Below, in pieces: positions 4,382-51,745 of a stretch of DNA of 64,000 nucleotides (position 1 is the stretch's first letter; each line of letters opens with the position of its first letter). Both the position numbers and the translations under genes were made by a program. The notes under the pieces were generated by a model. It was not told the DNA's origin, did no database searches, and saw only the letters and a list, made by a program, of their open reading frames with translations. Source of the stretch: a virus (Duplodnaviria; Heunggongvirae; Uroviricota; Caudoviricetes); IMG/VR virus record IMGVR_UViG_3300037424_001372, positions 64,001 through 128,000 of that record. One strand, written 5' to 3'.

Positions 4382-6010
4382 ATGAAAAAACTAGAAATAT
4401 CTGAAGGGAGTAGAACCGAGATTTATAATAAATATTGTTCGGGAATTTCAATGAATAAAATCGTAAATGATTCGGGTTATTCATTCACTGTAGTTCAAAA
4501 ATTAATTAATTCATTCGATTATGAAAATCAACTAAAAACTAATTATCCACAAAAAGACGGATATTATATAATTGCAGTTTGTAATCAAACACAAAAAGAA
4601 ATAAGTGATTATAAAAATGAATCTGGAGCAATTACTGAACATATTTTTAGATTATATTCAGAAGAAGCGAAAAATAGTAAATATATTCGTAAATCAAAAG
4701 AATATAAAACGGGCAAGTTTTGGTATGACCAATATTTCACATTTAAATACGAAAGAATAAGAGAAGTAAAAAAATGTTACTATTGTGATTGGACTACCGA
4801 AGATATTAATAACTTATCTGGTGCGTATGAAAAACATTTATTATTAATTCACAATAAAACCATTGAAAATTATTTAATTGATAATATTACAGATGCTACT
4901 TATTTTAAACATTTAACTCCTGACGATGCAATTACGTGTGCTATTTGTGGAGAAAAATTACGAATATTAAATGATAAGCATTTAAGTAGGCATAATATAA
5001 CTGTTGATAATTATAAATTAAAATATTCTGATTTAATCGTTTCGCCAAGTACTCATATAAAATTAAGTTCTTCGGTTAAGATAACTAATCAAAACATGAC
5101 ATTTTCAAAAACATCTAAAGGTGAAAATGAGGTAAAGGATTTTTTATTTAATAATGGTGTTATTGTAAAACAATCAACAAGAAAATTATTAGATGGCATT
5201 GAAATCGATTTATTTCTTCCTGATTATAACATAGGCATTGAATATAATGGTAATTTATATCATACGGAAAATTATGGGAAAAAGGGTTTTAATTATCATC
5301 TAAATAAAACAAAAGTAGCGACAGATAAGAAGATTAAATTATTTCACATTTTCGAGGATGAATGGCATTTAAGAAATGAGATTGTAAAAAATAAATTATT
5401 ACACATTTTAAATAAAAATTATTCAACAAAACTACATGCGAGAAAATGTAACATAACTGAAATTAATAAAGATATTAAATCCAAGTTTTTAGAAAAGTAT
5501 CATATTCAAGGGGATGACCGTTCAAATTATTTTTTGGGAGCATATTATAATGAAACACTTATTGCTGTAATGTCATTTAATAATAATAGAAATTTAAATA
5601 AAGAAAAAAATCATTCAGATGACACATATGAACTTACAAGATACTGTACAAATAGTGATTATATTATCAATGGCATTGCTTCTAAACTATTAAAATTTTT
5701 TATTTTAAATAAAAAACCAAAAAAAATAATAAGTTTTGCAGATAGACGATGGACACCATTATTTAATAATAATTTATACACTAATTTGGGATTTGATTTA
5801 ACTAAAATATTAAAACCCGATTACACATATTTCAATAAAAAAGCACATCGAAGCAAAAGATTACATAAGTTTGGATTCGGGAAAAATGCGATTAAAAAAA
5901 GATTTCCTGAAATATATAACGAAAACAAAACTGAATGGGAGATGATGCAAGAATTGGGGTATGATAGAATATGGGATTGTGGAAAATTTAAGTATGAATT
6001 AAATTTATAA
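4382..6010 (+). CDS. Hef-like free-standing endonuclease: Zn fingers + Vsr/PD-(D/E)XK-like nuclease + Mom-like GNAT domain
   Basis: CYYC..H..H and CAIC..H..H; EIDLFLP..IGIEYNGNLYH..HIFEDEW; HIQG, YELTRYC, ASKLL, SFADRRW, LY..LGF, WDCG..KYE. Confidence 0.75.
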   Translation: MKKLEISEGSRTEIYNKYCSGISMNKIVNDSGYSFTVVQKLINSFDYENQLKTNYPQKDGYYIIAVCNQTQKEISDYKNESGAITEHIFRLYSEEAKNSKYIRKSKEYKTGKFWYDQYFTFKYERIREVKKCYYCDWTTEDINNLSGAYEKHLLLIHNKTIENYLIDNITDATYFKHLTPDDAITCAICGEKLRILNDKHLSRHNITVDNYKLKYSDLIVSPSTHIKLSSSVKITNQNMTFSKTSKGENEVKDFLFNNGVIVKQSTRKLLDGIEIDLFLPDYNIGIEYNGNLYHTENYGKKGFNYHLNKTKVATDKKIKLFHIFEDEWHLRNEIVKNKLLHILNKNYSTKLHARKCNITEINKDIKSKFLEKYHIQGDDRSNYFLGAYYNETLIAVMSFNNNRNLNKEKNHSDDTYELTRYCTNSDYIINGIASKLLKFFILNKKPKKIISFADRRWTPLFNNNLYTNLGFDLTKILKPDYTYFNKKAHRSKRLHKFGFGKNAIKKRFPEIYNENKTEWEMMQELGYDRIWDCGKFKYELNL

Positions 6011-6066
6011 AAAGTTGAAATATTCTAACATCTTTTTATATGTTATATAATATTAATAATCAATAA

Positions 6067-7569
6067 ATGAAAAAAATAATAATTAATGATACAATTTTAT
6101 TGTTTTTAGGAATTAATGATTTTGAAAAAATCACTAAGAATGATTTAATTAATCTTAAGAAGAAATATTTAATTAAATATGATAATTGTATAATATATAA
6201 TTATTATGATTTATGTAATAAAAAGAAAATCATTAGAGATAAAATTAATAAAATAAAGTTTAATAATCAAATAAAAATTGGTGCACGTAATTGTAACATA
6301 CAATTAGTTGATAATAAAATAAAAAATGATTTTCTAAATGAATATCATATTCAGGGAACAGATAAATCTCAAATTTATTTTGCTGCATATTATAATAACG
6401 AAATAATTTCAATAATGTCATTTAATACATCAAATAAATTTATTGGAGGATTAAATGAAAATGAATATGAATTATCAAGATTTGCGATTAAATCTGGTTA
6501 TATTATTAATGGATTATTTGAAAAAATGTTAAAAAAATTTATTAACGTTTATTCGCCAAAAAAAATATTATCATTTGCTGACTTAAATATGTCAAATGGT
6601 GTATCAAATATATATGTAAATAATGGCTTTATTTTAAATAAAATTATTCGTCCTGATTATAGATATTATTCAAAAATCGATAATAGAATATATCATAAAT
6701 TTACATTTGGTACAAAATATGATAAAAATGAATCAATCTCAAATCATATTAAAATAGATAGAAAAAATCAATTAATTAAGGTTTGGAATTGTGGTAAATT
6801 AAAATATGAATTATTTATTGATAATAACAATCAAATTGTTTTTGGTTTTATTTATATGATAACCAATAAAATTAATAATAAAATATATATTGGGCAAACA
6901 ACTCGCAATATTCAAAAAAGAATTTATGAATATAAATCTGCATTTAATTTAAAAAATCATAATAATCCTCATCTATATAATGCATTTAATAAATATGGAT
7001 GGGATAATTTTGAATTTAAAATAATTGATACTGCACAAACGATTGAGGAATTAAATGATAAAGAAATTAATTATATTCAAAAATATAACACAACCAATAA
7101 AGAATTTGGTTACAATATCGAATCAGGTGGTAAAAATGCAATTCCTAATATTGAAACACTTGAAAAGATGTCCAAATCTCATTTAGGATTAAAACAAACA
7201 GAGAATTGGGTTTCTAAAAGAATTGCCATTGCTGGTAGTGACGGAGCAAAGAAATATGGAAAAGTAAAGAGTGAAGAAGAAAAAAATAATATTAGTATTA
7301 AATCACCCAAATATTGGCTAGGCAAGAATAGGGACGTTAAAACTAAATTAAAAATAAGTGAAACAAAAATGATGAATGGTTTATCTGATAGACAAAAGGA
7401 AGTGATCTGTAAGAAAGTATATAAAACTGATTTAATTAACAATGTGACAACAACATTTGAATCAGCAACAGATGCTGCAAAGTTTGAAATGGTCAATCAA
7501 TCAACAATTTCAAGATGGTGTCAAAAAAATAAGATAATTAATAACATTTCTTGGGGATATTTATTATAA
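6067..7569 (+). CDS. Mom-like GNAT domain fused to a GIY-YIG endonuclease with NUMOD-type tail
   Basis: N-half: HIQG, YELSRF, SFADL, WNCGKLKYE. C-half: GFIYMITNKINNKIYIGQT.R...R, then TLEKMSKSHLG and FESATDAAK. Confidence 0.8.
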   Translation: MKKIIINDTILLFLGINDFEKITKNDLINLKKKYLIKYDNCIIYNYYDLCNKKKIIRDKINKIKFNNQIKIGARNCNIQLVDNKIKNDFLNEYHIQGTDKSQIYFAAYYNNEIISIMSFNTSNKFIGGLNENEYELSRFAIKSGYIINGLFEKMLKKFINVYSPKKILSFADLNMSNGVSNIYVNNGFILNKIIRPDYRYYSKIDNRIYHKFTFGTKYDKNESISNHIKIDRKNQLIKVWNCGKLKYELFIDNNNQIVFGFIYMITNKINNKIYIGQTTRNIQKRIYEYKSAFNLKNHNNPHLYNAFNKYGWDNFEFKIIDTAQTIEELNDKEINYIQKYNTTNKEFGYNIESGGKNAIPNIETLEKMSKSHLGLKQTENWVSKRIAIAGSDGAKKYGKVKSEEEKNNISIKSPKYWLGKNRDVKTKLKISETKMMNGLSDRQKEVICKKVYKTDLINNVTTTFESATDAAKFEMVNQSTISRWCQKNKIINNISWGYLL

Positions 7570-7683
7570 CAATGTATTAATAAAATACTATTTATTAAAT
7601 TTCGTATTGTTGACCAATTATTTATAATTATAATTAATTAGTTAAATGATGTGATATGCAATAGTTATAACATTTAAAGAAGC

Positions 7684-7911
7684 CTATCCACGTTTAATCC
7701 AGTAATTGTAAATTCCCATTCCCCATGAATATGTATAGAAAGCAGTTAACGCAACTATACCCCATTGTTCATTCGTGATTGATGTATAAAACCAAAATGG
7801 CTGCCCAATAAGTCCGATAATATAACCCCATCGCTTCCATTCTTCTTTTCGCGCAACTAACCAAATCGCAGTACATCCGAATATTAAAATCATTATTTGC
7901 GAAAAATCCAT
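7684..7911 (-). CDS. Small PnuC-like three-helix membrane protein
   Basis: Hydrophobic helices with IWLVARK..W.RWG..IG...Q..W and G.YNYW patterns. Confidence 0.55.
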   Translation of the reverse strand: MDFSQIMILIFGCTAIWLVARKEEWKRWGYIIGLIGQPFWFYTSITNEQWGIVALTAFYTYSWGMGIYNYWIKRG

Positions 7912-8035
7912 GGAAATAAATGTTGCCTAACACACGTAGTAGTAATACGGGTGTTAGTTGTTATTAGAATATACTACATTTTATTAAGTTCACTATTAAT
8001 TGATAGCGTATCAATCTATGTGCTATTGTCAACAG

Positions 8036-8278
8036 TTATGTGATATTAGCCAACGTCTGTAACATTTTTACACATTTATCCAAAGTATCATCAATGTCAA
8101 CATTAGCAGATGAACTTAATCCCCATATAAAATCACCAAGATACGTTATTAAATCATCATCATCTAAATGTCTTTTAATCATTTTCATGGCATCATGAAT
8201 ATGTTCGGCAGGGTCAATATAACTATACAGTTTTTCTTCTAAGATGTTTAATACATCAATTACTGTTTGTCTTATCAT
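8036..8278 (-). CDS. Hypothetical protein
   Basis: ATG ORF within a co-oriented run of small genes. Confidence 0.6.
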   Translation of the reverse strand: MIRQTVIDVLNILEEKLYSYIDPAEHIHDAMKMIKRHLDDDDLITYLGDFIWGLSSSANVDIDDTLDKCVKMLQTLANIT

Positions 8279-8325
8279 ATAAGAGTCTTTTTTTGTTAAT
8301 TAACATTTATACTTGTCTGTTATGA

Positions 8326-8589
8326 TTAATTAAACACATACCATTCACCATCTTCTAACAATTCTAATTGTAAATAAGGTATTTTATCAATATCTTCAAT
8401 ACTTAATTTATAATTAACATTCGGTATTAATGGTTTAAATGAATTAGAGTTATGATCATCATTATACCCATTTTCATATAAATAAAAAACTACATCCGAA
8501 TCCACCTTCTCTAGTGTTGTTTTATCCGCAATTTCATATCGATATTTATCAAATATTTCGCATATTTTTTCTTTATATTCGCTATTCAT
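8326..8589 (-). CDS. Hypothetical protein
   Basis: ATG ORF within a co-oriented run. Confidence 0.6.
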   Translation of the reverse strand: MNSEYKEKICEIFDKYRYEIADKTTLEKVDSDVVFYLYENGYNDDHNSNSFKPLIPNVNYKLSIEDIDKIPYLQLELLEDGEWYVFN

Positions 8590-8614
8590 ATTTATTAAAA
8601 TTAACTAATTATCT

Positions 8615-8962
8615 TTAATTTGTGGTCGATAGATATAATATTTGAGGAAAATTACCAAAAACGAACTTCGTAACATCACAAAGCCAAATTTCAAGACCTA
8701 TTCTAATTCCTCGATATTTTTCAAGTTTGTAAAATGCTCCGTTTTCAATTTCGGTAGCAAGTCGCAAAAATTCTAACTTATCACAGTTTTTAAATTTTTG
8801 TTCTGATAACATTATTAAAACTTGAGATTCACCGTCTGCAATATATTCTAGCATAGTATCTGCACCAGCAACCATTTCAAGATCAGTTTTGCTACCAGTC
8901 CATTCAGCTAAATCAATGTACCATCTATTATCACTTTCTTTGTAAAATCTTAATTTTTTCAT
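8615..8962 (-). CDS. DUF6717-like protein
   Basis: WYIDL.EW.G.K.DLEMVAGADTML and WLCDVT.FVFG.FP motifs. Confidence 0.6.
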   Translation of the reverse strand: MKKLRFYKESDNRWYIDLAEWTGSKTDLEMVAGADTMLEYIADGESQVLIMLSEQKFKNCDKLEFLRLATEIENGAFYKLEKYRGIRIGLEIWLCDVTKFVFGNFPQILYLSTTN

Positions 8963-8980
8963 ATTTTCAATTTCATTAAA

Positions 8981-9361: not shown

Positions 9362-9380
9362 TTTTTATTCATTTAAATTA

Positions 9381-11930
9381 TTACTCATCTTTCCAATTAT
9401 GGTCATATATCAATTCTAAACGACTTCTTGTTATCGCAACATATTCTAAATTTTTTTCTTGGGCAAATTGCCAAGGTTTAGGTGTTTGCATAGGTAATAA
9501 ATCAGGTCTGATTATAAATACTCTATCAGCTTCCAATCCCTTAACCTTATGAACAGTACTCAAAACAATTCCTTGAATCTCATCAGTAAAAATAGAATTA
9601 ATTTTAAATTTCAAATCAACAATACTATTAGATAATCTTGCTAAAAATAATAATGTATTTACTTTATCTTCAAGAATAGCATAACCACTATGGTCATTAG
9701 GATTTAAAATACCGTCTTTTTTTAAACTATTGCGATATTGCAACAATTCATCGTTCCAAAAACTAACTAAATTCTCAACACTATTTATTTTTCCAATTAG
9801 TTCAATTAAATGCACTCCAATATCACTACCTTTAATTATGGCTTTTTTTCTTTGAACTAAAAATTCGAAGAAAAGTTTTACCAATGGCATGGTTGTTCGA
9901 CAAATAACAAAGTCACCACTTTGTGCTTCATCAACAACACTACCTTCTCGAACACATCCTTCAGGAGCATCTGGTAATGCTTTGATGTCGGGTACTATTT
10001 CCTGTGCTTTACGAATAACTGCTTTGGAGCATCTGAAAGAAGTGGTTAATGGTAATACTTTTGTATTTTCAAATTTTTCAAACCATTGAAAAGATTTATC
10101 ATCAACGGCATTGAAACCGTAAATACTTTGTGTTTCATCTCCGAAAGAAAATAATCTACCCTCAAGTTTTTTCGTAGTTCTATTACGTTTTAAAACCTTT
10201 TCAATAATTTTTATTTGACATCTATTAATATCCTGACAATTATGGGTAATAATGCCATAATTTTCAGCATTTCCTTTAAACATTGATGTCGATGTAGTTA
10301 TAAAATTATGATTATCTTCAACTGTCATATCATATGTTTTCTCTTTTTTATGAAATGTGTGTTCTTTAGTAACAACCATACAACCTATTTCATGAGTATT
10401 TATTTTCCAATAATCATTATTATAATAACCCCTATCCTCTAAACATAATTTATAATCCATTGATGGATGAATATATTCTCTCAATAAAAATGAGAGTTTA
10501 CGTGTGTTTTCTGCATTAAATTCTAACCAATAATATTTTTTATTTGAAGAAGAACTTTTGCCTGTACAAACTTTTGATTCAATATTCCAATTATTTTTTA
10601 TTTTATTTGAAAATTTAATTGAATTATCGTAACTTTTTGCAGTTGAATACAATCTGGAATAACTATTTCCTAAATTACCATCATCCATCCATGATATAGC
10701 CAATGATTGTAGTGATATGTTATCAATATAATCAATGGTATTATCCCAATAAAAAGTATTACTACAAAAAACAAATGCATTTTTATTTGAATATCCGTTA
10801 TTATAATTTTCATTTATTTCTTCATTAAAAAATTTTGCTTTCCATTGAATATATTCCTTCTGATTCTTACCGTGAATTACCCTTAATCTATATATAAAAT
10901 CTGAAATTTTATTAATATTACCATCACCTAATTTAGAACCAATAACTATGTTTTTTTGTGTATTATTTAATAATAAATGATATGGTTGTTCGTAATAATT
11001 AGATAAAACACAATCACCAATTATTAATTCATCTAATCGTTTCCAACCATTAGATGTTAAAAATTTATGATTAACTGTCGATTTTAATTTTCTTTTTCCG
11101 TTTAACATAACATAATATACATCTTTTTCACCAGTACACCAAACATCAAGAATTTTTTTATTTTCAAATATTTTCTTATTTTCATTATATGTAATAACAT
11201 TAGGTAATTTTCTTTTTTTCTCGTTCAAATTAAAAAGACTACCAATTTGTTTTTTACCATCAATAGTTGATATATATGTTTTATAAGGCAAACATTCATC
11301 GACAAACACATAATCCTGCGGAAAAAACCATATTGTATTATCTATTGCTGGTAAAAAAATCATATCAGTGTAATCATAAGTATTTCTATCAATAGTCATT
11401 GTATCTAATACTTTCAACACTCGTTTAATATCATTGGGTTTTGTTAACGGTATATCATATCTATCAGCAACAAATGGTATATAATCTGCTTTAGTGGTTA
11501 AAGTAAGTCTACATAAATTACAGAGTTTCTTAATATTATCTAAATATATTAAAACCTCTTCTTCAGATTTAAATTCATCATTTAACTTCCAAGATTTGGC
11601 TTTCTTTTGAATAATTTTATCTGACTTAAATTCATCAAAAACAATTTTATCACCATATTTTCGTTTAATCGCAGAATTACCTAAACCATATGTTGTGTAA
11701 CATCTAACATGTTCAGGTAATTTAGTTTCAAGTTCATCTTTAATATGTTTATTAAATGCTAAAAAAGTAATTGACTTATCCTTAGGTAATAATTTAACAC
11801 ATTCTACAGCAGTACTGGTTTTACCACTACCTGCTCGTGCTTTAATTAAAATATTTTCAGGTCTGTTTTTAGTAAATAAAAAAATTCTTTCTTGTTCAGC
11901 AGTTGGTTTAAAATTCATAATTTTACCCAA
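9381..11930 (-). CDS. UvrD/Rep SF1 helicase with an intein
   Basis: Walker A ARAGSGKT; Walker B VFVDE|CQD split by the intein; GD..QSIYGF, SFRC, STVHKVKGLE, YVAITRSR. Confidence 0.93.
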   Translation of the reverse strand: MGKIMNFKPTAEQERIFLFTKNRPENILIKARAGSGKTSTAVECVKLLPKDKSITFLAFNKHIKDELETKLPEHVRCYTTYGLGNSAIKRKYGDKIVFDEFKSDKIIQKKAKSWKLNDEFKSEEEVLIYLDNIKKLCNLCRLTLTTKADYIPFVADRYDIPLTKPNDIKRVLKVLDTMTIDRNTYDYTDMIFLPAIDNTIWFFPQDYVFVDECLPYKTYISTIDGKKQIGSLFNLNEKKRKLPNVITYNENKKIFENKKILDVWCTGEKDVYYVMLNGKRKLKSTVNHKFLTSNGWKRLDELIIGDCVLSNYYEQPYHLLLNNTQKNIVIGSKLGDGNINKISDFIYRLRVIHGKNQKEYIQWKAKFFNEEINENYNNGYSNKNAFVFCSNTFYWDNTIDYIDNISLQSLAISWMDDGNLGNSYSRLYSTAKSYDNSIKFSNKIKNNWNIESKVCTGKSSSSNKKYYWLEFNAENTRKLSFLLREYIHPSMDYKLCLEDRGYYNNDYWKINTHEIGCMVVTKEHTFHKKEKTYDMTVEDNHNFITTSTSMFKGNAENYGIITHNCQDINRCQIKIIEKVLKRNRTTKKLEGRLFSFGDETQSIYGFNAVDDKSFQWFEKFENTKVLPLTTSFRCSKAVIRKAQEIVPDIKALPDAPEGCVREGSVVDEAQSGDFVICRTTMPLVKLFFEFLVQRKKAIIKGSDIGVHLIELIGKINSVENLVSFWNDELLQYRNSLKKDGILNPNDHSGYAILEDKVNTLLFLARLSNSIVDLKFKINSIFTDEIQGIVLSTVHKVKGLEADRVFIIRPDLLPMQTPKPWQFAQEKNLEYVAITRSRLELIYDHNWKDE
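10239..11294 (-). mobile_element. 352-aa intein with a LAGLIDADG homing endonuclease
   Basis: Starts CLPYKT, block B T.NHKF, LAGLIDADG-like IGSKLGDG and ISWMDDG, block F TYDMTVEDNHNF, ends THN before +1 Cys. Confidence 0.92.
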
Positions 11931-13607: not shown

Positions 13608-13609
13608 TT

Positions 13610-13648
13610 AAATTCGAGATGATTAAATTATAATATCATCTCGAATTT
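13610..13648. terminator. 14-bp perfect inverted repeat between convergent genes
   Basis: AAATTCGAGATGAT-11 nt-ATCATCTCGAATTT. Confidence 0.5.
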
Positions 13649-15298
13649 CATATTCCCACAATCATATACACAATGATAACCCCTTTCCATCATAATTTGA
13701 TGTTCTGTTTTATTTTTATCAAATCCTTGCTCAACCAAAACATTCTTTCTAAATTTAAATCTATGATAACGAATCAACGTATTTTTTATAAAATACCAAT
13801 AATTGATATCTGAATTACCAATGAACTTAAATCCTAATTTTAAATATAAACCACCATTACTGTAACGTCTATCTGCATATGTTAAAATAGATTTGGGTTG
13901 GTATGTTTTAACGAAATAACTAAGTAATTTACTTGCACCGCCTATTACTGTTGTGTTAAGTTTATTACAAAACCTCAGCATTTCATATTCACCATCAATA
14001 CTTATTTTATTGCCCATTGCTAATCTTTTTTTACCAAATGTCATGATTGATACTAATTCATCATCATAATATAAACCTAATTTAATTTTACCTCCTATAA
14101 ATCCTTGTATATGATTATTATTTAAAAAATTACGAATTGAATTATTATTGTTAATTTCTTTAATTTCACATTTTCTAGCAAATATTTTATTTTCAATAAT
14201 TCCTAGTTTGGATTTTATTATTGATTTAACAATATCTCTTTTATTTGCCCATTCATCTTCAAAAATATGTAGCAATTGAATACCTCGTTTTTTGCATAAA
14301 TTAGTTTTATTTAAATGAAAATCTATATTTTTAAATTTTGTTGAATGATAATAAATTCCATTAAATTCAATACCTATTTTATGCTCAGGTAAATAAATAT
14401 CTATTTCACATTTATCAATTTTTATTTTTGATGCGTTAAGGTTTAATTCATTTATTATAAAATCAAGCACCTCAAGTTCATTTATTGATGATTGTTGTGA
14501 TATTGGATAACATTCCGTACATAAATTAGTATTACTTCTTAATCTCGAAAAATAATTATTTTTTATTATTGTAAATGTTTTATGATATTTACAATAATTG
14601 CTTATTATCAATTCATTATCATGAATATTAACATCACAGTTATTTAAGTTTAAAGTATTTGAAACATTTTCAATCATTTTAATTTTAGCATTTAATTTTA
14701 TTTTATTCTTAATTGAATTAATATGATTTTTATCATATGATAAATGTTCAACACCATATTTTATTACATTAGTTTTCTTTATTTTCTCTTTAATGACTTC
14801 AGATTTAAATACATTATCAACACCATATTTATTGAATGTCGTTTTTTTTTGCTTATCTCTAATTTTCTGTACCTTCATTGGGTTATCAACACCATAATTA
14901 TTCCTACACGTTATTTCTATTTTTCTTCTAATGTCTTTTTTTTTCGATATGTGTTCATCTGAATAATATGTGATTTTTTTCTTATTTAACGTTGATTCAG
15001 ATTTATTACTACATGTAGATGAACAAAATGTCGAAAACCCCCTATTAACACTACCCAAAAATGTACAATTTTTACCACAAATAGGACATTTAGGTATTTC
15101 GTTTATATTATTAAGATATAGAAGAATTTTCTCTTTGAATAAACAACTATTTGCAGAATTATTTATTATTTTCTCATATAGTTTCGGAAGATGTTTACTC
15201 AACCATTTCTCTGTTGACTTATATCCAGACACGTTATCTGTGGTAAACCATATCTTTAATTCTTCCTCAGTGTAATTATTAACATCATTCTCAATCAT
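13628..15298 (-). CDS. Hef-like endonuclease/Mom-like GNAT fusion with 3 KYGV repeats
   Basis: PKCPICG..FCS..C, three YGV repeats, EIDIYLP..GIEFNGIYYH..HIFEDEW, HIQG, EMLRFC, GGASKLL, YADRRYS, YDCG. Confidence 0.75.
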   Translation of the reverse strand: MIENDVNNYTEEELKIWFTTDNVSGYKSTEKWLSKHLPKLYEKIINNSANSCLFKEKILLYLNNINEIPKCPICGKNCTFLGSVNRGFSTFCSSTCSNKSESTLNKKKITYYSDEHISKKKDIRRKIEITCRNNYGVDNPMKVQKIRDKQKKTTFNKYGVDNVFKSEVIKEKIKKTNVIKYGVEHLSYDKNHINSIKNKIKLNAKIKMIENVSNTLNLNNCDVNIHDNELIISNYCKYHKTFTIIKNNYFSRLRSNTNLCTECYPISQQSSINELEVLDFIINELNLNASKIKIDKCEIDIYLPEHKIGIEFNGIYYHSTKFKNIDFHLNKTNLCKKRGIQLLHIFEDEWANKRDIVKSIIKSKLGIIENKIFARKCEIKEINNNNSIRNFLNNNHIQGFIGGKIKLGLYYDDELVSIMTFGKKRLAMGNKISIDGEYEMLRFCNKLNTTVIGGASKLLSYFVKTYQPKSILTYADRRYSNGGLYLKLGFKFIGNSDINYWYFIKNTLIRYHRFKFRKNVLVEQGFDKNKTEHQIMMERGYHCVYDCGNMKFEMIL

Positions 15299-15443
15299 TT
15301 TTCATATCATTTTCTAACAACACTCTTATTTTTTCAGATAATGAATACCTCTTATCTTTACAATATTTTTGATATTGATTCTTTAACTCTGGACTTATTC
15401 TAATTTTAAGTTCAGTTGTTTTATCTTTTAAATATTTTTCCAT
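15291..15443 (-). CDS. Ribbon-helix-helix DNA-binding protein (50 aa, absent from the ORF track)
   Basis: MEKYLKDKTTELKIRISPELKNQYQKYCKDKRYSLSEKIRVLLENDMKND: alternating beta-ribbon ELKIRI, helix, then LSE.IR..L. Its stop overlaps the next start. Confidence 0.7.
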   Translation of the reverse strand: MEKYLKDKTTELKIRISPELKNQYQKYCKDKRYSLSEKIRVLLENDMKND

Positions 15444-16385: not shown

Positions 16386-17216
16386 TTAGATTGCAATTTC
16401 CAATGTTTTGCTTAATTTTTGAATACCTTCAATATTTTTTATTTCAAAATCATCAATAGTATATTCATAAAAGTTTTTCATTTCTTTTAAAACTAATATT
16501 GGTTGTTCTTCTAATGGTTCACGTTTTAATAATTCATCGACAGAATCAAAATGTTTATCATATATATGTAAGTTTTGTGTCAAATGACAAAATTTACCAA
16601 TATTATATCCTAAATGACCAGCAATCATCATTTGCAATGCAACATATTGAATTTTATTAATGTAACCAGCCATAATATAATCATTACTTCTCTGTATAAG
16701 TGTTAAATCTAAATAAAAAATATTATTAACTTTTCTAACTGACCAAATAGTTTCATAAGCACATGGGTCTAAACCAATTGTAGAATTAATATCTTCATAT
16801 TGATACATGTTTATAATGTGTCTACGCGCAAATGGATTATATTCTAAAGAATATAAAAGTTTATTAATTAAATCATGTTTCTTAACTGTTGCACCATATC
16901 TTTGTCCAATAGTCCCATCACCAACATTCCATTCATCCCACCAATTAATACCTAATTTGTGTGCATCTGATAAAATATTAGATTGTTTCTGATAAATCCA
17001 AAACATTTCTTTAATTCCAGTTTTTATTGCAGTATTTCTTAAAGTAGTTATTGGAAATTCCCCTTTAGATAAATCATATTCTTCAAATATTTGAGTAATA
17101 AATTTACTATGTGCTGGTTGACCATCTTTCCATTTTGGTCTTGGGTTTTCATCCCACTGTCCATCATTTAAAATTTTATTTAAATTTTGAATGTAATAAT
17201 TATCTGCTTTTATCAT
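16386..17216 (-). CDS. thyA: Thymidylate synthase
   Basis: FPITTLR, IG.RYG, catalytic LDPC, QRSND, N..QY, NLHIYDKH. Confidence 0.95.
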   Translation of the reverse strand: MIKADNYYIQNLNKILNDGQWDENPRPKWKDGQPAHSKFITQIFEEYDLSKGEFPITTLRNTAIKTGIKEMFWIYQKQSNILSDAHKLGINWWDEWNVGDGTIGQRYGATVKKHDLINKLLYSLEYNPFARRHIINMYQYEDINSTIGLDPCAYETIWSVRKVNNIFYLDLTLIQRSNDYIMAGYINKIQYVALQMMIAGHLGYNIGKFCHLTQNLHIYDKHFDSVDELLKREPLEEQPILVLKEMKNFYEYTIDDFEIKNIEGIQKLSKTLEIAI

Positions 17217-18195
17217 AATAAAATTGATTAAATTTTTTTATATTATTAGTTAAATCTTCAATTAATATAGATGAATGTCTTGATTTTCTTATATTATCAC
17301 TCCATAATATTAATTCTAAATTAGATGGATGTGAAATTATATCAACCTCAATATTATTAATAAATCCTTCAAACACACTGAATTTATGGTCAAGTTGATA
17401 TCCATCATTACCATTTGTAACTCTTTTTAAATTTTCTGGATTAATAAATTCATTATATTTAAGATAGTTTTTTCTGGTTAAATTTCTCACACTCTTACTA
17501 TATTTTTTAAAATCACTTAAAAATTCATCTGGAATAATCAATCCTCTTAAAATTTTAGTATTCCTTTGTTTTTTCACATTTTCTTCATTATTAATTAAAA
17601 AGGAATTGGTTACACCATATTTTGTTTCAATAATGGTTTTTATTTTATGAATTATTTCGGAAGATTTAAATGGATTATCAACGCCATAATTAATTAGCCA
17701 AGTTTTCTTTGCTTTATTTTTTATTTCTTCAGAATGAAATGAATGAAATACACCAAAATTTTGAAACATTTTTTCCTTAACCTTATCATTAAGTGATTTT
17801 ACTTGAAATGTATATCCCCCGTATTTAATATTAAATGTTTCGGTTCTTTTTTTAATTCTAATTTTCTTTTCATCATCACTTAAATTCAAATAACATTCTC
17901 TAAATTTATTTTTAGTTTCGTCCGAATTGTTATTACATTTATGGGAACAATATTTATTTTGAATATTTAACATATTTTTACCACATTGTGCACATTTATT
18001 AATACTATATTTATTATATAGTATATAATTTATTCTTACACTCAACGAAGGATTCATTTCATTTAAAAATGATGTTTCTTTTTGAATTTCAAAAATAAAA
18101 TTCTCGTTCAAATGTGACATTTTTTTTGATGAAATAAGTGGTTTACTATTTCGTATAAAACAAACTTCATTAATTATTTTTTCTTTTATATTCAT
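17200..18195 (-). CDS. HNH-type free-standing endonuclease with 4 KYGV repeats
   Basis: CAQCG..YCS..C, YGV repeats, C-terminal YQLDHKFS..GF...HPSNLE.....N.RK. Confidence 0.7.
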   Translation of the reverse strand: MNIKEKIINEVCFIRNSKPLISSKKMSHLNENFIFEIQKETSFLNEMNPSLSVRINYILYNKYSINKCAQCGKNMLNIQNKYCSHKCNNNSDETKNKFRECYLNLSDDEKKIRIKKRTETFNIKYGGYTFQVKSLNDKVKEKMFQNFGVFHSFHSEEIKNKAKKTWLINYGVDNPFKSSEIIHKIKTIIETKYGVTNSFLINNEENVKKQRNTKILRGLIIPDEFLSDFKKYSKSVRNLTRKNYLKYNEFINPENLKRVTNGNDGYQLDHKFSVFEGFINNIEVDIISHPSNLELILWSDNIRKSRHSSILIEDLTNNIKKFNQFYYDKSR

Positions 18196-28618: not shown

Positions 28619-31384
28619 ATGGCAGATTTCGTATTTACATCTCCGGGTGTTAAATTTAAAGAAAGAGATATTACTTTTGTAACACGTAATGTTGGTATCA
28701 CGACATTAGGATTAGCTGGTGAAACATTAAAAGGACCTGCTTTTGAACCGGTTTATATTCAAGACCAAACCCAATTTTTAAATAGATTTGGTGGACAAAG
28801 TATAAAAAGGTTTCAAAACGGTGAAAAAACATTACAATATCAATTACCTTATGTTGCAAATGCTTTTTTGGAAGAAGCTCAACAACTTTGGGTAACTAGA
28901 GTACTTGGACTTAGTGGATATAAGGCAGGTAAATCATGGAATATTTTATTAGATGCAGGTGTTGATTTATCTACATCAGGTGTTACAGGTTCTCCGGTAA
29001 CAACAACAGATATTCCATTTACCGGAGCAGCTTATTTAGGCGTTTCACTTAATGGTATTGGGGTTACTGGTTCAACCGCCACAGGATACACAAAAAATAA
29101 TAGTATTTTCTATCAAACAGTTCATGAATTCACTGCTACGACATATACTTCAGGTACTGGTACTGTTACTGATATAACAACAACATATTCAGCAAATTCA
29201 TTAACAGAATATGAAAATATGGTATTGGCCGTTATTAGAAGTAGGGCGGTTTCAAATATTCCGATAGATTCAATTGCAGTAACAACACCCATTACAACTG
29301 ATGTTGAAATTACTCAAAATGATACTTTAATTGATGCAGGTGATTTATTTGCGACAATTAAATTAGATGTTAATAATACTGATAATAGTTCGATATATTT
29401 TGGTACTAATGCAACATATTATGTATCATTAAATCCAAACGATTCCAACTATTTACCAAATGTTATAGGTCGTGAACCTAAAGATAAGAATACCATGATT
29501 TGGGTTCAAGCAATCTATCCAGATTTAATTAGAAAACTTGATGCCGATAGCATTGCATATGGTATTAAATCAGAAATGATTGAAACTGATGAAAATAATA
29601 CATATTTTGCGGATTATGAAGTTGGTTATCAAACACCTGAAACTCCTTGGGTAGTATCTCAATTAAAAGGTAATAGTGTTGATAAATTATTTAAATTTAT
29701 AAGTATTTCGGATGGAGATTCTGCTAATCAAGAAATCAAAATTAGTATTGCAAATATTGACCCATATTCATTAGAATTTGATGTGGTTATTCGTGATTTT
29801 TATGATACCGATGCAAATGTTTCTGTTTTAGAAACCTATACAAGATGTAATTTAACCAAAGGTAGTTCAAATTATATTGGTCAACGTATTGGTACTAGTG
29901 ATGGCGAATATAGTTTAATTAGTAAGTATATAATGGTAGAAGTTTCCGAAGAATTGGCTAATGATGTATACCCTGCCGGATTTGAGGGTTATTTGTTTAA
30001 CAATTATTCGACTGAAGTGACCGGTAGTGCTACTGAAGGTATTTGTCCCGAAATATTTTATAAAACTTCTTATGCCGATACTGATAAGTTAGTGAAAACA
30101 TATTTAGGTATTTCTGAATTAGCATATACTGGTAATGGTATTAATCAAAATTTTTTTAATTTTAATAACTATTATAATGGTCAAACCGCTAGTGGATTTA
30201 CTAAAACAAAAGGTTTTCACTTAGATTCTGGAGTAACTATTATTACTGGAAATACCGAATTTGTTGGTGGTGCAGCAGCATTTAATACTACTGTTGATAG
30301 TAATACCACTGGTCCATATTATAACATTAAATCAAGAAAATTTACATTAGTTCCAGCAGGTGGTTTCGATGGTTGGGATGTAAATAGAACTGAACGTTCT
30401 TATGGAGATGATTATGTTCAAGGTGGAAGGAGAAGTGGACACCCCGGTGAACCATTAGTTGTTCCGACAAATGATTTTCAGGCATGGGAAACAGCTATAG
30501 ATACTTTTGCTAATCCAGAGGATATTACTATTAACCTTTTCGCAACCCCCGGAATTGAGTGGGCTAATCAAACAACTTTAGTTCAAAATACTATTGATAT
30601 GATTGAACAACAAAGAACAGATACTCTATATGTTATTGATGCGCCTCAATTAAGCGAAGATTTTCTTTCAACAGTTGGTGATAGTGGTAAGGCAGATGTT
30701 TTAGCTGCCACAGAAATTGCCAATTTATTAGAAGATACATCGATAGATAGTAGTTATGCATGTACATACTATCCTTGGATTCAAATGCGCGATACTCAAA
30801 ACAATGTTAATGTTTATATTCCACCAACTGGTGAAGTGGTTAAAGCAATGGCATATACTGATAACGTATCATTCCCTTGGTTTGCAGTAGCTGGTCTTAA
30901 TCGTGGTGTTACTAACGCAAGAAAATCACAATTTAAACTTTCTTTGGATGCTCGTGATATTCTTTATGCCGGTCGTGTAAATCCTATGGCAGATTTTGCA
31001 AATACTGGAACTGCTATTTTTGGCCAGAAAACACTTCAAGTTAAAGAAACTGCACTTGATAGGATCAATGTTCGTAGATTATTATTGCAAATCAAAGTGT
31101 TGATTTCAAATATTGCAGTTAGATTGTTATTCGAACAAAATGACCAAGCGACTATCGACCAATTCTTAAATAAAGCAAATCCTATTCTTGATAGTATTAA
31201 ACGTGAGAGAGGTTTAACTGATTTTAGAATAAAAATGGATAGTAGTAATAACACCCCTGAAACTCGCGATAGAAACGAATTGTATGGTGAAATCTTCTTA
31301 AAACCAACTCGTTCGGTAGAATTTATTGGAATTACATTCACGATAACGCCATCAGGAGCAAATTTTGCTGATGCAGGTGCTTAA
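28619..31384 (+). CDS. Tail sheath protein (gp18-like)
   Basis: SPGV...E.D, G...KGPAF.P, YYPW, WFA.AG..RG, GQKTL, DRINVRRLL, LKPTRSVEFI.I.F. Confidence 0.96.
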   Translation: MADFVFTSPGVKFKERDITFVTRNVGITTLGLAGETLKGPAFEPVYIQDQTQFLNRFGGQSIKRFQNGEKTLQYQLPYVANAFLEEAQQLWVTRVLGLSGYKAGKSWNILLDAGVDLSTSGVTGSPVTTTDIPFTGAAYLGVSLNGIGVTGSTATGYTKNNSIFYQTVHEFTATTYTSGTGTVTDITTTYSANSLTEYENMVLAVIRSRAVSNIPIDSIAVTTPITTDVEITQNDTLIDAGDLFATIKLDVNNTDNSSIYFGTNATYYVSLNPNDSNYLPNVIGREPKDKNTMIWVQAIYPDLIRKLDADSIAYGIKSEMIETDENNTYFADYEVGYQTPETPWVVSQLKGNSVDKLFKFISISDGDSANQEIKISIANIDPYSLEFDVVIRDFYDTDANVSVLETYTRCNLTKGSSNYIGQRIGTSDGEYSLISKYIMVEVSEELANDVYPAGFEGYLFNNYSTEVTGSATEGICPEIFYKTSYADTDKLVKTYLGISELAYTGNGINQNFFNFNNYYNGQTASGFTKTKGFHLDSGVTIITGNTEFVGGAAAFNTTVDSNTTGPYYNIKSRKFTLVPAGGFDGWDVNRTERSYGDDYVQGGRRSGHPGEPLVVPTNDFQAWETAIDTFANPEDITINLFATPGIEWANQTTLVQNTIDMIEQQRTDTLYVIDAPQLSEDFLSTVGDSGKADVLAATEIANLLEDTSIDSSYACTYYPWIQMRDTQNNVNVYIPPTGEVVKAMAYTDNVSFPWFAVAGLNRGVTNARKSQFKLSLDARDILYAGRVNPMADFANTGTAIFGQKTLQVKETALDRINVRRLLLQIKVLISNIAVRLLFEQNDQATIDQFLNKANPILDSIKRERGLTDFRIKMDSSNNTPETRDRNELYGEIFLKPTRSVEFIGITFTITPSGANFADAGA

Positions 31385-31431: not shown

Positions 31432-32973
31432 CTATAATATTAATTCATATTTAAAATTACCACAATCATAAATTCTAGGTATTTTTCTATCTAACATTAT
31501 TTCATGTTCGGATTTATTTAAATCAAAGCCCTCTTGAATTAAGTTACTTTTTCTAAAATTAAATCGATGTTTACGTTGTTTATTTATTACATAAAAATAA
31601 TTTGGTGGTGTAATCTTTGTTTGTTTAAAATTTAATTTTTCATATAAATTACCGTTTGAATATCTTCTATTCGCATATGTAATAATTTTATTTGGTTTAT
31701 TTTTTTTTATAAAAAAATCTAATAATTTAGATGCTCCTCCAATAACAGAAGTATTTAACTTATTACAAAATCTCAATAATTCATAATCATTTAAATTTGA
31801 TTTTGAGCCTAAAATATTTCTTAAATTACCGAAAGTCATTATCGAAACTAATTCATTATTATATAATAATCCAATATTATATTTACCATTAACATTTCCT
31901 TGAATATGATTTTTTTCTAAAAAATCTTTGGTAGTAATATTATCGATATAAGTGATTTCACATTTTCGGGCAAATATTTTAATTTTTGTTAAATTTAATT
32001 TATTTAATATTATGGATTCAACAATATTAAATTTTTCAATAATTTCGTCTTCAAAAAATTGTAATAAATCATAATTAATGTCATTACATTTATTTAGTTT
32101 ATTTATATGATAATGTTTATCAACATAATATTCTGAATGCCAATGTAATCCATTAATTTCAATTCCAATATTTTTTTCAGGAATTAAAATATCGATTTCA
32201 AGATTTTTTAACAGTTTTCTATCATTAGCAATATAATTCACATTATTAATATTAAGAAAATTACCTATTTTTAATTCTAATGTTGATTTGGGTGCAGAAA
32301 CCGGTAATAATATTGTCGATAATTCAACATTATGATTTAAACGATTAACTAATAACTTTCTATGATTTTCAAAAATATGTCCATCTGGATGTTGAATTTT
32401 AATATTATCATTATTAAAGTCAATTATTTTATAATTGATTTCTGCAAACCTTTGTATTAGATTTAAATTTCTTTTATTAATTATTGTTGCACGTGCTTTT
32501 TTTATTGAATCATGATTATTGTGTTTTATTTTATTTTGAATCGATTTTAATTTAAACAATGAATCAACACCATATTTTAACATCAAAGATTCTTTGCTTT
32601 TTTGTATTCTATTATTTTTATTTTCAATATTATTATTCCAAATATTCCTACATAAAATTGAACAAAATTTTTTATCGTATTTTATCCTTTCTTTAAATTC
32701 ATTTCCACATATTAAACAAATTCTATTCTCAGTACTATTAACATGTTTAGCCTCTCCAGAACATTTATATGAACAATATTTTTTATTTTCTTTTATTTTA
32801 GATTTAAACAATTTACTACAATTTTGACATTCTTTCATTTCAAAGAAAATTTCGTCTTTTTTTAATCTAAATTGTTTTTTACATTCATTAGAACAAGTTT
32901 TTTTTTCTTTTCCTTTTCTAACTTCAAAAGATTTGCCACAATTTTCACATATCATATTTACAATAACTGCCAT
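31432..32973 (-). CDS. Hef-like endonuclease/Mom-like GNAT fusion with three CxxC...CSxxC zinc modules
   Basis: CENC/CQNC/CLIC modules, one KYGV unit, EIDILIP..GIEINGLHWH..FFEDE, HIQG, ELLRFC, GGASKLL, YANRRYS, YDCG. Confidence 0.75.
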   Translation of the reverse strand: MAVIVNMICENCGKSFEVRKGKEKKTCSNECKKQFRLKKDEIFFEMKECQNCSKLFKSKIKENKKYCSYKCSGEAKHVNSTENRICLICGNEFKERIKYDKKFCSILCRNIWNNNIENKNNRIQKSKESLMLKYGVDSLFKLKSIQNKIKHNNHDSIKKARATIINKRNLNLIQRFAEINYKIIDFNNDNIKIQHPDGHIFENHRKLLVNRLNHNVELSTILLPVSAPKSTLELKIGNFLNINNVNYIANDRKLLKNLEIDILIPEKNIGIEINGLHWHSEYYVDKHYHINKLNKCNDINYDLLQFFEDEIIEKFNIVESIILNKLNLTKIKIFARKCEITYIDNITTKDFLEKNHIQGNVNGKYNIGLLYNNELVSIMTFGNLRNILGSKSNLNDYELLRFCNKLNTSVIGGASKLLDFFIKKNKPNKIITYANRRYSNGNLYEKLNFKQTKITPPNYFYVINKQRKHRFNFRKSNLIQEGFDLNKSEHEIMLDRKIPRIYDCGNFKYELIL

Positions 32974-33359: not shown

Positions 33360-33857
33360 ATGGCAGCAGAAGAAACTATGATTAGAACGATGCCGTTCGA
33401 TTATGAACCAAAAAGAACGAATCGATTTTTTGCAGTATTCGATGATTCTTTAGGTATTCAAGTTTGGAAAGTTCAAAAATTCAAAAGACCGTCAATGAAA
33501 ATAAATTCAGTTCCTATTCAATATATGAATGAACAGAATTATGTGGCTGGTCGATATACTTGGGATACGATGTCAATAACTTTTCTTGACCCGATAGGTC
33601 CTTCAACCTCACAACAATTAATGGAATGGGTTCGTTTACATGCGGAATCACTTACAGGTCGTATGGGTTATGCTGCGGGTTATAAAAAAGACATTGTGTT
33701 AAAATCTCTTGACCCAACAGGTGTTGAAGTTGAAAAATGGTTTTTAGAACAATGTATGATTACAAGCATTGACTTTGGTGAAAATGATTATGGTAATGAT
33801 GAGTTAACTAATGTCAGTTTAGAAATCCAGCCGTGGAGGTGCGTACTTAACGTATAA
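33360..33857 (+). CDS. Tail tube protein (gp19-like)
   Basis: EPKR.NRF, RP, Y.AGR..W, DPI.PS..Q..MEW.R, GY...YKKD, DPTG..VEKW. Confidence 0.9.
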   Translation: MAAEETMIRTMPFDYEPKRTNRFFAVFDDSLGIQVWKVQKFKRPSMKINSVPIQYMNEQNYVAGRYTWDTMSITFLDPIGPSTSQQLMEWVRLHAESLTGRMGYAAGYKKDIVLKSLDPTGVEVEKWFLEQCMITSIDFGENDYGNDELTNVSLEIQPWRCVLNV

Positions 33858-46150: not shown

Positions 46151-46174
46151 TAAGTATTTATAAAAAAAGTTTAA

Positions 46175-49495: not shown

Positions 49496-49806
49496 TGCCT
49501 TATCAAGATTATAATAGATACGAATTATTAAAAAATTCAAACGGTACTACTGATGCAATGCCGTTTGTAAAATTACCTGAAAATCCTAGTGATAAATTTG
49601 AATATTGGAATACTAATTTTAGTAGATTGGATATTTTATCTCAAAAATATTATGGTAATCCTTTTTACGATTTTTTAATTCTTTATGGAAATAATGTTTA
49701 TTTAAGTGAATTTGATATACCTGATGGTACATTGATAAAAATACCATTTCCACTTTCTAAAGCAAAGGCAGATTATGAGCAGATTTTAATGTCATTTAAA
49801 ACTTAA
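49495..49806 (+). CDS. Baseplate wedge protein, gp53/LysM-like
   Basis: RLD.LS.KYYG.P.Y..LIL..N.....I..G..IKIP. Confidence 0.8.
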   Translation: MPYQDYNRYELLKNSNGTTDAMPFVKLPENPSDKFEYWNTNFSRLDILSQKYYGNPFYDFLILYGNNVYLSEFDIPDGTLIKIPFPLSKAKADYEQILMSFKT

Positions 49807-49861
49807 TAAAAATTTGATTTTTTCATTTTTAATGTATTTATTTGTAGCAAATATTTTATAG

Positions 49862-51745
49862 ATGAAAAAAGAATGTATTGAAATTTTAGAAAAAAAAATA
49901 TATTTTGAAAAATATATAAAAAAAACTTATCCATTATTATATGATGAAATAATAAAATTTAATTCTAAATTAGATATTTCATGGTTAAATAAATTATATA
50001 ATTACATATTTAATATTAAAATTCATCCTAAATGTGAATATTGTAATACACAATTAAATTTTAGAAATAAAATTAGTATTGGATATGGTCAATATTGCTC
50101 AAAAAAATGTACTTCTTTAGCTACAAGAGATAAGGTAATAAATACTAATTTAGAAAAATATGGTGTTGAATATCCTTTACAAAATAAGGAAATTTATCAA
50201 AAATTAATTAATACTAATTTAGAAAAATATGGTGTTATTTCAACACTATTAGATGAAAAGGTTCAAGAAAAAATTAAACAAACTAATTTAGTTAGACATG
50301 GCGTTGAAAATCCGTCTCAATCAGATTTAATAAAATATAAACGCAAACAAACTAATTTAAAAAAATATGGTGTTGAGAATGTTTTTTGTGTAAATATTAT
50401 AAAAAATAAAATTAAAGAATGTAATGAAAATAAATCCCATTTTGAAAAAGAGTTTATTAAAGAAAAAACTAAAAAAACTAATTTAAAAAAATATGGGGTG
50501 TCAACAGTTCTTATTTTAGAAGAAAATAGAAAAAAAATGATTAATTATAATATTAATCATTTAGGTGTTAAATATCCTTTACAAAATGAAGAAATTAGAA
50601 ATAAATCAAAAAAAACTATTTTGAATAAATATGGCACCATTAGTATTAGTAGTTCCAATTATTATAAGGAATGTATTAATACTAATTTAATTAAAAAATA
50701 TTCATTATTACTTAATTTAAATAATAATAATATTAAATATAATAATAATATTTTTATTATTAAAAATTATTGTGAATTACATAAAAAATTTCATATAAAA
50801 TATGATGATTTATATAATAGAATATTTCTTGGTTGTAATAACATTTGTACCAAATGCAACCCAATATCTAAACAATCTAAAATAAAGGAAAACGAAATCA
50901 ATGATTATATCAAATCATTGAATGTTAAATACATAAGAAACGATAGGAAAATTCTATCCCGTAAAGAGCTAGATTTTTATCTCCCAGATAATAAATTGGC
51001 AATTGAATTCAACGGTTTATATTGGCATTCGAATAAATATAATTCAAATAATTATCATTTGGATAAAACCAATTCTTGTGAAGAGCAAAACATACAATTA
51101 TTACATGTGTTTGAGGATGAGTGGGTTTATAAAAAAGAAATTGTTAAAAGCATTATTAAATCTAAGTTGGGAATAATTGAAAATAAAATATTTGCAAGAA
51201 AAACAGAAATAAAAGAAATAACTGATAATAATTTAACTAAAGAATTTCTTGAAAATAACCACTTACAAGGTTCTATCAATTCTTCAATTAAGTTAGGATT
51301 ATTCCATAATAATCAATTAGTTAGTCTTATGACTTTTGGAAAAAAACGGGTTGCTTTAGGCAATAAAACACAAAATATTGGTGAATATGAGATGTTAAGG
51401 TTCTGCAATAAACTTAATACTCAGGTAGTTGGAGGTGCTAGTAAATTATTAAAATATTTCACAAACAATTACCGACCCAAAGAAATATTAACTTTTGCAG
51501 ATAGGAGATATAGTAATGGTAATCTATATAAAGAACTAGGATTTAATTACTTAGGAAATACCAAACCTAATTATTGGTATTTTAAAAAGAACGAATTGGT
51601 AAGATATCATAGATTTAATTTCAGAAAAGATATTTTGGTTAAAGAAGGTTTTGATTCAAATAAAACCGAACATCAAATAATGGAAGAAAAGGGATATTTG
51701 AGAATATACGATTCGGGGAATATGAAATTTAAAATAAAATGTTGA
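49862..51745 (+). CDS. Hef-like endonuclease/Mom-like GNAT fusion with about 7 KYGV repeats
   Basis: PKCEYC..YCSKKC, TNLEKYGV repeats, ELDFYLP..AIEFNGLYWH..HVFEDEW, HLQG, EMLRFC, GGASKLL, FADRRYS, YDSG. Confidence 0.78.
   Translation: MKKECIEILEKKIYFEKYIKKTYPLLYDEIIKFNSKLDISWLNKLYNYIFNIKIHPKCEYCNTQLNFRNKISIGYGQYCSKKCTSLATRDKVINTNLEKYGVEYPLQNKEIYQKLINTNLEKYGVISTLLDEKVQEKIKQTNLVRHGVENPSQSDLIKYKRKQTNLKKYGVENVFCVNIIKNKIKECNENKSHFEKEFIKEKTKKTNLKKYGVSTVLILEENRKKMINYNINHLGVKYPLQNEEIRNKSKKTILNKYGTISISSSNYYKECINTNLIKKYSLLLNLNNNNIKYNNNIFIIKNYCELHKKFHIKYDDLYNRIFLGCNNICTKCNPISKQSKIKENEINDYIKSLNVKYIRNDRKILSRKELDFYLPDNKLAIEFNGLYWHSNKYNSNNYHLDKTNSCEEQNIQLLHVFEDEWVYKKEIVKSIIKSKLGIIENKIFARKTEIKEITDNNLTKEFLENNHLQGSINSSIKLGLFHNNQLVSLMTFGKKRVALGNKTQNIGEYEMLRFCNKLNTQVVGGASKLLKYFTNNYRPKEILTFADRRYSNGNLYKELGFNYLGNTKPNYWYFKKNELVRYHRFNFRKDILVKEGFDSNKTEHQIMEEKGYLRIYDSGNMKFKIKC
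50141..50640 (+). repeat. 23-aa KYGV repeat array
   Basis: AATACTAATTTAGAAAAATATGGTGTT occurs exactly at 50141 and 50210 (69 nt apart), with further diverged copies. Confidence 0.85.

Follow-up and report, generated by a model that had tools for sequence, protein, structure and literature searches.

In the 64,000-nucleotide (nt) stretch that is analysed here, and which we refer to as the window (bases 64001-128000 of the 324,744-bp virus record IMGVR_UViG_3300037424_001372, rated complete by CheckV), six open reading frames (ORFs) encode proteins in which a nuclease is fused to a domain that resembles Mom of phage Mu. The window has a G+C content of ~25%, and the genome that it belongs to is that of a T4-like jumbo phage (325 kb). 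By comparing the six genes with known nuclease and Mom structures, and with loci of related phages that have been collected around four flanking genes, we have come to read them, with a probability of about 0.72, as Hef-type free-standing homing endonuclease genes that would spread through the homing cycle inferred for this family.

Six nuclease genes and their shared domain

The domain that is common to the six ORFs is ~195 amino acids (aa) long: its full-length alignment contains 27 invariant columns, and the identity to the first copy is 36-46%. A profile search of the whole 324,744-bp genome has located the domain at exactly six places (E 8e-75 to 1e-99), all inside the window, with no copies outside it; a match of this quality is far beyond chance. 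In five of the copies, a nuclease with the motif D..LP..IE.NG..H...EDE is located immediately N-terminal of the domain; in the sixth copy, at 6067, the order is reversed, i.e. the shared domain occurs first, followed by a complete GIY-YIG endonuclease. Within this genome, the domain is always fused to a nuclease and never stands alone, and all six reading frames are intact (500-716 aa). A first-pass annotation of the window had reported six ORFs at these positions with a shared domain, preceded directly by a nuclease in five of them; the alignment and the genome-wide search confirm the former, and the nuclease motif is present in all five copies of the latter. The genes and their parts, in window coordinates, are the following:

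4382..6010, + strand: P0001, 542 aa, predicted Hef-type homing endonuclease, directly downstream of the major capsid gene (phrog_3339 E 5e-87)
aa 174-215: Ros/MucR-like zinc finger of P0001
nt 5123-5404 (~aa 248-341): Vsr-like nuclease of P0001
nt 5414-6007 (aa 345-542): Mom-like GNAT domain of P0001
6067..7569, + strand: P0002, 500 aa, Mom-like domain and predicted GIY-YIG homing endonuclease module
nt 6244-6831 (aa ~60-255): Mom-like domain of P0002
nt 6844-7101 (aa 260-345): GIY-YIG domain of P0002 (PF01541 E 2.6e-11)
aa 449-473: NUMOD1 of P0002
13628..15298, - strand: P0003, 556 aa, predicted Hef-type homing endonuclease with a zinc ribbon (phrog_3339 E 3e-132)
nt 14699-14971: DUF7487 23-aa repeats of P0003
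nt 14222-14506: Vsr-like nuclease of P0003
nt 13631-14221: Mom-like domain of P0003
26376..28526, - strand: P0004, 716 aa as listed, predicted Hef-type, flanked by an 821-aa gene and the gene of the tail sheath
nt ~27327-28079: DUF7487 of P0004, ~9 repeats (E 1e-34)
nt 26970-27251: Vsr-like nuclease of P0004 (Vsr E 1.4e-4)
nt 26379-26969: Mom-like domain of P0004
31432..32973, - strand: P0005, 513 aa, predicted Hef-type, flanked by the genes of the tail sheath and the tail tube
nt 32017-32301: Vsr-like nuclease of P0005
nt 31435-32016: Mom-like domain of P0005
49862..51745, + strand: P0006, 627 aa, predicted Hef-type homing endonuclease
nt ~50132-50641: DUF7487 repeats of P0006
nt 50864-51148: Vsr-like nuclease of P0006
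nt 51149-51742: Mom-like domain of P0006

The general plan of the five copies with a Vsr-like nuclease is that zinc-ribbon and DUF7487-repeat modules occupy the N-terminus and the Mom-like GNAT domain the C-terminus. The N-terminal parts of P0003, P0004 and P0006 contain DUF7487 "KYGV" arrays with a 23-aa (69-nt) unit, which varies in copy number and presumably serves as a DNA-binding repeat. The TTG start that is listed for P0004 adds 52 low-complexity residues to the protein and is probably wrong; the ATG at 28370 (residue 53) is the preferred start, because it fits the N-termini of the homologues. The stop codon of P0004 and the start codon of the 821-aa gene that follows it overlap by one base.

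Nuclease and Mom-like domain: folds and conserved residues

The nuclease of the five copies in which it precedes the shared domain is Vsr-like, of the EDxHD type. The AlphaFold2 model of the nuclease together with the Mom-like domain is confident and rigid (predicted local distance difference test score, pLDDT, 93.1; predicted template modelling score, pTM, 0.88), and in the Foldseek search the N-terminal half of this model matches the catalytic domain of I-Bth0305I (3r3p_B; E 6e-4, TMt 0.75, 23% identity over 99 columns). The "bacteriophage Hef type homing endonucleases" have been placed in the Vsr-like EDxHD family, with I-Bth0305I as its prototype (Taylor et al. 2011). In an alignment of 44 sequences, residues E45, D47, E58, G61, H65, E94 and D95 of the nuclease are invariant or ≥90% conserved, and the order of the motifs suggests how its E/D/N/H/D positions may be matched to residues of I-Bth0305I; the Pfam and NCBIfam matches of the nuclease (Vsr and MTES_1575) are weak and remain below threshold.

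At the level of whole proteins, the family phrog_3339 ("homing endonuclease") matches the five Vsr-type copies over its own full length (E 5e-87 to 2e-145), and matches P0002 in its Mom-like part only; residues 260-491 of P0002 correspond to a full I-TevI-type module (TIGR01453, 100.3 bits vs a cutoff of 56). Relatives have been found by tblastn in 428 phage records, annotated as "homing endonuclease", "Hef-like endonuclease" or "F-LimX"; a single Campylobacter phage genome can have as many as 11-12 such places, and the family amounts to 17,108 cluster representatives at E ≤ 0.001. A homologue from Tequatrovirus sits between nrdA and nrdB; this gap is the mobE locus in T4 and is occupied by hef in phage U5, where Hef has been reported, second-hand, to cleave nrdB (PMC2988022). 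The resemblance to Hef-type endonucleases that had been noticed from the sequence is thus borne out by the full-length family matches, by the annotated Hef-like relatives and by the homologue between nrdA and nrdB.

The model of the shared domain, built with AlphaFold2 for P0006 from a 36-sequence alignment (pLDDT 90.8), predicts a GNAT fold that is nearest to that of Mu Mom: the top Foldseek match is 8bv8_A (E 6e-8, template modelling score 0.60/0.54 over 195 columns), and more than 100 GNAT acetyltransferases rank after it. This structure has been recovered by fold search only. A sequence search of the PDB with a 6-sequence profile has not retrieved Mom, the best match being a glyphosate N-acetyltransferase (E 0.03), and the hhalign comparison of the same profile with a single Mom sequence has given an unusable probability of 2%; deeper profiles have been used instead, and the alignment with 30 genuine Mom proteins has reached E 8.6e-5 and a probability of 60%. 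The Pfam family Mom (PF25680) is matched by the P0006 domain with 37.1 bits (cutoff 27.1), by P0005 and P0001 under the cutoff (20.0 and 17.6 bits), and not by P0002, P0003 or P0004; precomputed PF25680 matches exist on many close metagenomic relatives, and P0001 exceeds the cutoff of Acetyltransf_1 (23.1 bits). The helices at 155-180 of the model, between the strands at 152-154 and 183-187, constitute a helical insertion ahead of the last two strands, which bears nearly invariant Arg/Lys residues; Mom has an essential, HTH-like and putatively DNA-binding insertion at the equivalent position (PMC13219725).

The chemistry of Mom has been defined recently: it takes glycine from Gly-tRNA(Gly) and transfers it onto adenine N6 in double-stranded DNA, and residues R111, S124, D149 and R151 are essential (Silva et al. 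2026, PMC13219725); Mom residues that are important for activity have also been described by Karambelkar et al., with R111 being specific to Mom and not general to GNATs. The hhalign comparison pairs H58, R111, S124, D149, R151, Y159 and H183 of Mom with the HxQG, ELxRF, GGAS, ADxR, LY and YH motifs of the shared domain. P0001, P0003, P0004 and P0006 possess equivalents of all four essential residues, in P0005 the equivalent of D149 is N, and in P0002 the equivalents of S124 and R151 are E and N. Among 274 close relatives, H58 is conserved in 98%, R111 in 99.6%, Y159 in 100%, S124 in 82%, D149 in 87% and R151 in 58%, while the positions of the G-G-A-S loop, which resembles the GNAT pyrophosphate loop, are conserved in 82-99%. 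Of the GIY-YIG-linked domains, 16 distinct ones from related phages have been compared: R111, H58 and Y159 are invariant and H183 is present in 15/16 (with one gap); S124 has been lost in 15/16 and R151 in 13/16, each mostly to Asn.

This pattern of conservation indicates that the Mom-like cleft is under strong selection everywhere, and that what selection maintains in at least one clade, the GIY-YIG-linked one, is probably something other than Mom-type transfer. The first-pass annotation had read the domain as a Mom-like GNAT whose motifs are kept by selection; the first rank of 8bv8, the one copy that passes PF25680 and the aligned active-site residues agree with the former, and the conserved cleft residues of the 274 relatives and of the GIY-YIG-linked domains agree with the latter. 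Its proposal of an acyl-CoA-dependent step is outdated for Mom itself by the Gly-tRNA(Gly) donor (PMC13219725); the subfamily found here does keep a GNAT-like G-G-A-S loop, which is absent from Mom. Its coupling of modification to cleavage in each of the six genes is not supported either: since P0002 and its GIY-YIG-linked clade lack two Mom-essential residues, Mom-type modification cannot be general to all six, and in the GIY-YIG-linked copy itself such transfer is unlikely.

Site occupancy, lineages and the role of the Mom-like domain

Each of the six copies is located in an intergenic gap beside a conserved gene (capsid, helicase, sheath or tube). T4-like virion genes of the window include a baseplate hub gene and the following flanking genes:

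2538-4226: gp23-type major capsid protein
28619-31384: tail sheath
33360-33857: tail tube

In the related phages, a Hef-like gene is present in 0-5% of the relatives at four of the sites, and the gaps that are empty have the following median lengths:

P0004 site (821-aa gene to sheath): occupied in 2/37 relatives, median empty gap 273 bp
P0005 site (sheath to tube): occupied in 3/59 relatives, median empty gap 532 bp
P0003 site (372-aa to 186-aa gene): occupied in 4/75 relatives, median empty gap 319 bp
P0006 site: occupied in 0/29 relatives, median empty gap 551 bp

In the tree of the Mom-like domain, five of the six copies have as their sisters not their paralogues but copies that other phages carry at the corresponding site (supports 0.85-0.99): P0004 groups with L011 (same site, support 0.99), P0002 with L074 (0.97), P0003 with L296 (same site, 0.93), P0001 with L122, a copy that follows the capsid gene of another phage (0.88), and P0005 with L035 and L062, both at the same site. 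P0006 groups with L246, beside the 372-aa gene, and with L055, at the P0004 site, which suggests that it has moved to a new site. A recent intragenomic duplication has been considered as the origin of the six copies and rejected, as each of them has nearer relatives in other phages than among its paralogues. No direct repeats resembling target-site duplications occur around any of the six genes, the only periodicity being the internal 69-nt one of DUF7487. Such sporadic occupancy of fixed intergenic sites beside conserved genes, combined with lineages that keep to their sites, is what characterises free-standing homing endonucleases.

The gap that follows the capsid gene (window 4227-8600; loci L068-L147) is a polymorphic endonuclease hot spot: in the relatives it is empty or contains a GIY-YIG gene only, a Mom-like domain with GIY-YIG, a Vsr-type nuclease with a Mom-like domain, or tandem pairs as in the window, and the architecture of P0002 recurs there in related phages. 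At this site, the Mom-like domains of the Vsr type and of the GIY type are each other's nearest clades, with a weak support of 0.64; this pairing hints at a swap of the nuclease on a kept Mom-like module.

In the homing cycle that is inferred from the family, the nuclease would cut the copy-less allele of a related phage during co-infection, and the cut genome would then receive the endonuclease gene, together with flanking markers, through recombinational repair (homing, or marker exclusion). As for the Mom-like domain, it follows the nuclease in all of the 33/33 distinct Vsr-type ORFs of the related loci, is found in only 18/74 distinct GIY-YIG ORFs and does not occur in I-Bth0305I, which makes it an obligatory partner of this nuclease type; it is probably a working part of the Vsr-type enzymes and not a decaying passenger. 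One role that we consider to have an even chance of being correct is a part in site recognition, in which the target DNA would be engaged by the Mom-like cleft and the basic helical insertion, perhaps with an adenine being flipped out; it is favoured because the GIY-YIG clade keeps the domain with an altered catalytic set, with R111, H58, Y159 and H183 being invariant or nearly so. That acyl or aminoacyl transfer is still active in the four copies with the complete Mom catalytic set seems to us rather doubtful. If the domain does read or mark DNA, homing enzymes would have in it a module of a new kind, for targeting or for self-immunity. With the chemistry and the essential residues of Mom having been defined in 2026, its role is now directly testable, and natural controls exist: the Vsr-linked copies with the full Mom catalytic set, and the GIY-YIG-linked copies that lack S124 and R151 but have R111, H58, Y159 and H183.

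Several points weigh against this interpretation as a whole. The reported activity of Hef comes from a second-hand citation, and the cleavage site, the homing and the DNA binding of all six proteins are themselves predicted. Only one of the six copies exceeds the Pfam threshold for Mom, and the profile-profile probability against Mom is just 60%. Support for the deep nodes of the tree is weak, and P0006, which has no counterpart at its own site in the 29 relatives and clusters with copies from other sites, limits the site fidelity to five copies. Lastly, the near-invariant residues of the catalytic cleft in the Vsr-linked class exceed the needs of a plain DNA-binding module, which leaves room for an enzymatic role.

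It is established that free-standing endonuclease genes do not interrupt their targets, which are left undisrupted. In a self-immunising homing endonuclease ("homing R-M", for restriction-modification), the Mom-like domain would be an active transferase that acylates or aminoacylates an adenine in the recognition site of the enzyme on the carrier genome; the gene could then spare the target sequence in an essential neighbour and yet avoid cutting its own genome. The residues for such a reaction are largely in place: R111, S124, D149 and R151 all occur in 4/6 copies (99.6, 82, 87 and 58% in the 274 relatives), R111 is the Mom-specific one, and the loop that resembles the GNAT pyrophosphate loop is kept (82-99%); however, R151 is replaced in 42% of the close relatives, P0005 carries the change D149N, and the GIY-YIG-linked clade retains the domain despite the loss of S124 (15/16) and R151 (13/16). 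An own Mom-like domain on every Vsr-type nuclease (33/33) is also what would be expected if the protection must fit the site of each enzyme; other free-standing homing endonucleases, though, gain immunity by polymorphism of the target site, without modification, and no modified base is known in phages with Hef-like genes. We regard this explanation as improbable; if true, it would describe a site-specific "homing restriction-modification" unit in one polypeptide, and the Mom reaction would have a second use in biochemical terms.

A broader version, in which the domains modify the phage genome at large ("momylation") and the nucleases destroy unmodified DNA of the host or of superinfecting phages, has been proposed for the Mom-REase fusions of jumbo phages (Iyer et al. 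2021, PMC7824862), and it agrees with the GNAT/Mom fold and with the largely intact catalytic set. It is nevertheless very improbable here: one broad modifier would do, yet six diverged copies each retain a domain of their own; the copies are sporadic (0-5% of the related phages at four sites), which is not what a core defence function would show; all but one of the six belong to site-specific lineages; the nuclease is from a family of long-site homing enzymes, and Hef itself has been reported as a homing enzyme. The selfish restriction-modification-like element that had been suggested for each gene in the first-pass annotation, an idea already present in PMC7824862, is a poorer fit to the evidence than ordinary homing endonuclease biology, which is favoured by the sporadic insertion at intergenic sites that are fixed and by lineages that are specific to their sites. 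It is scarcely credible that the genes are decaying or domesticated remnants without nuclease activity, with the Mom-like domain being an inert relic: the homing cycle does predict decay after fixation, and P0002 and P0005 do carry substitutions at Mom catalytic positions, but the six frames of 500-716 aa are intact, the residues of the nuclease motif are ≥90% conserved, both structure models are confident, and the sites are far from fixation in the lineage.

Neighbouring genes and comparison with known systems

Next to P0003, a small ORF has been found:

15291..15443, - strand: Arc/ribbon-helix-helix-like ORF, 50 aa, with its end overlapping the P0003 start (match to phrog_582, Arc-like repressor, E 1.3e-4)

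This ORF is a possible regulator of the P0003 cassette. Homologues are present in related phages: one in L296, where the orthologous endonuclease lies beside it, and others in ~12 loci (L267-L272, L279-L280 and the overlapping L077-L081) with the same neighbourhood, where no Mom-like gene has been detected. Another mobile element of the region is an intein (Intein_splicing, aa 228-545) with a LAGLIDADG endonuclease (LAGLIDADG_2, aa 327-479), which splits the gene of a UvrD-like helicase (9381-11930, - strand); in relatives, the helicase appears as two matching blocks with variable spacing. Adjoining the thymidylate synthase gene (16386-17216), a 331-aa ORF (17200-18195, - strand) matches the N-terminal half of the Hef-type family only (phrog_3339 positions 29-234, with DUF7487 repeats, and with neither the Vsr-like nor the Mom-like domain); this may be a relative that has been truncated, or else the repeat module on a different C-terminal domain.

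Among known systems, Hef and the Hef-like endonucleases of T4-related and jumbo phages (Hef of phage U5, F-LimIII/VII/VIII/X of LIMEstone and the sets of the Campylobacter phages) are the closest: they have the same full-length architecture, belong to the same sequence family and also occur in multiple copies, and their genes are likewise free-standing beside conserved genes, e.g. tail tube and baseplate genes. The genes of the window differ from them only in where they are inserted, in the host genome and in how many DUF7487 repeats, a variable number, precede the nuclease at the N-terminus, with no evident functional difference. F-CphI has been considered as a relative and rejected, as its motif is that of Endo VII and its family is another one. 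I-Bth0305I (3r3p) has the same nuclease fold and the same conserved acidic and histidine positions; it is, however, encoded in an intron, and its nuclease is C-terminal to NUMOD/HTH (helix-turn-helix) DNA-binding modules, with no Mom-like domain. The module at 260-491 of P0002 shares TIGR01453, GIY-YIG and NUMOD1 with the GIY-YIG enzymes of the I-TevI and Seg types, to which P0002 adds an N-terminal Mom-like domain without the equivalents of S124 and R151.

Mu Mom (8bv8) and the shared domain have in common the GNAT fold with a helical insertion and the equivalents of H58, R111, S124, D149, R151, Y159 and H183. At ~15-19% identity, the differences include Y59, which is I/L here, W181, which is R here, and the G-G-A-S loop in place of the N-S-E-S of Mom; in addition, no com-like translational control is seen here.

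The Mom-REase fusions that have been described in jumbo phages by Iyer, Anantharaman, Krishnan, Burroughs and Aravind (2021, PMC7824862) are apparently fusions of the same kind, for which the same cut-and-modify hypothesis has been put forward. They are presented there as defence systems, whereas the distribution and the tree that we have obtained here indicate homing elements, both views being predictions. The literature therefore describes the same proteins in two ways, as Vsr-like EDxHD homing endonucleases and as Mom-REase "momylation/restriction" systems. The six genes are new members of an existing family, whose nuclease class, Mom fusion and cut-and-modify hypothesis are all already in the literature; on the reading preferred here, they would be unexceptional representatives of a family that is among the most abundant of all selfish phage genes, and should be annotated so. 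What the present analysis adds to these descriptions is the map of the catalytic residues in the light of the Mom data of 2026, the finding that the GIY-YIG-linked clade has consistently lost S124 and R151, the obligatory pairing of the Vsr-type nuclease with the Mom-like domain, and the site-specific lineages.

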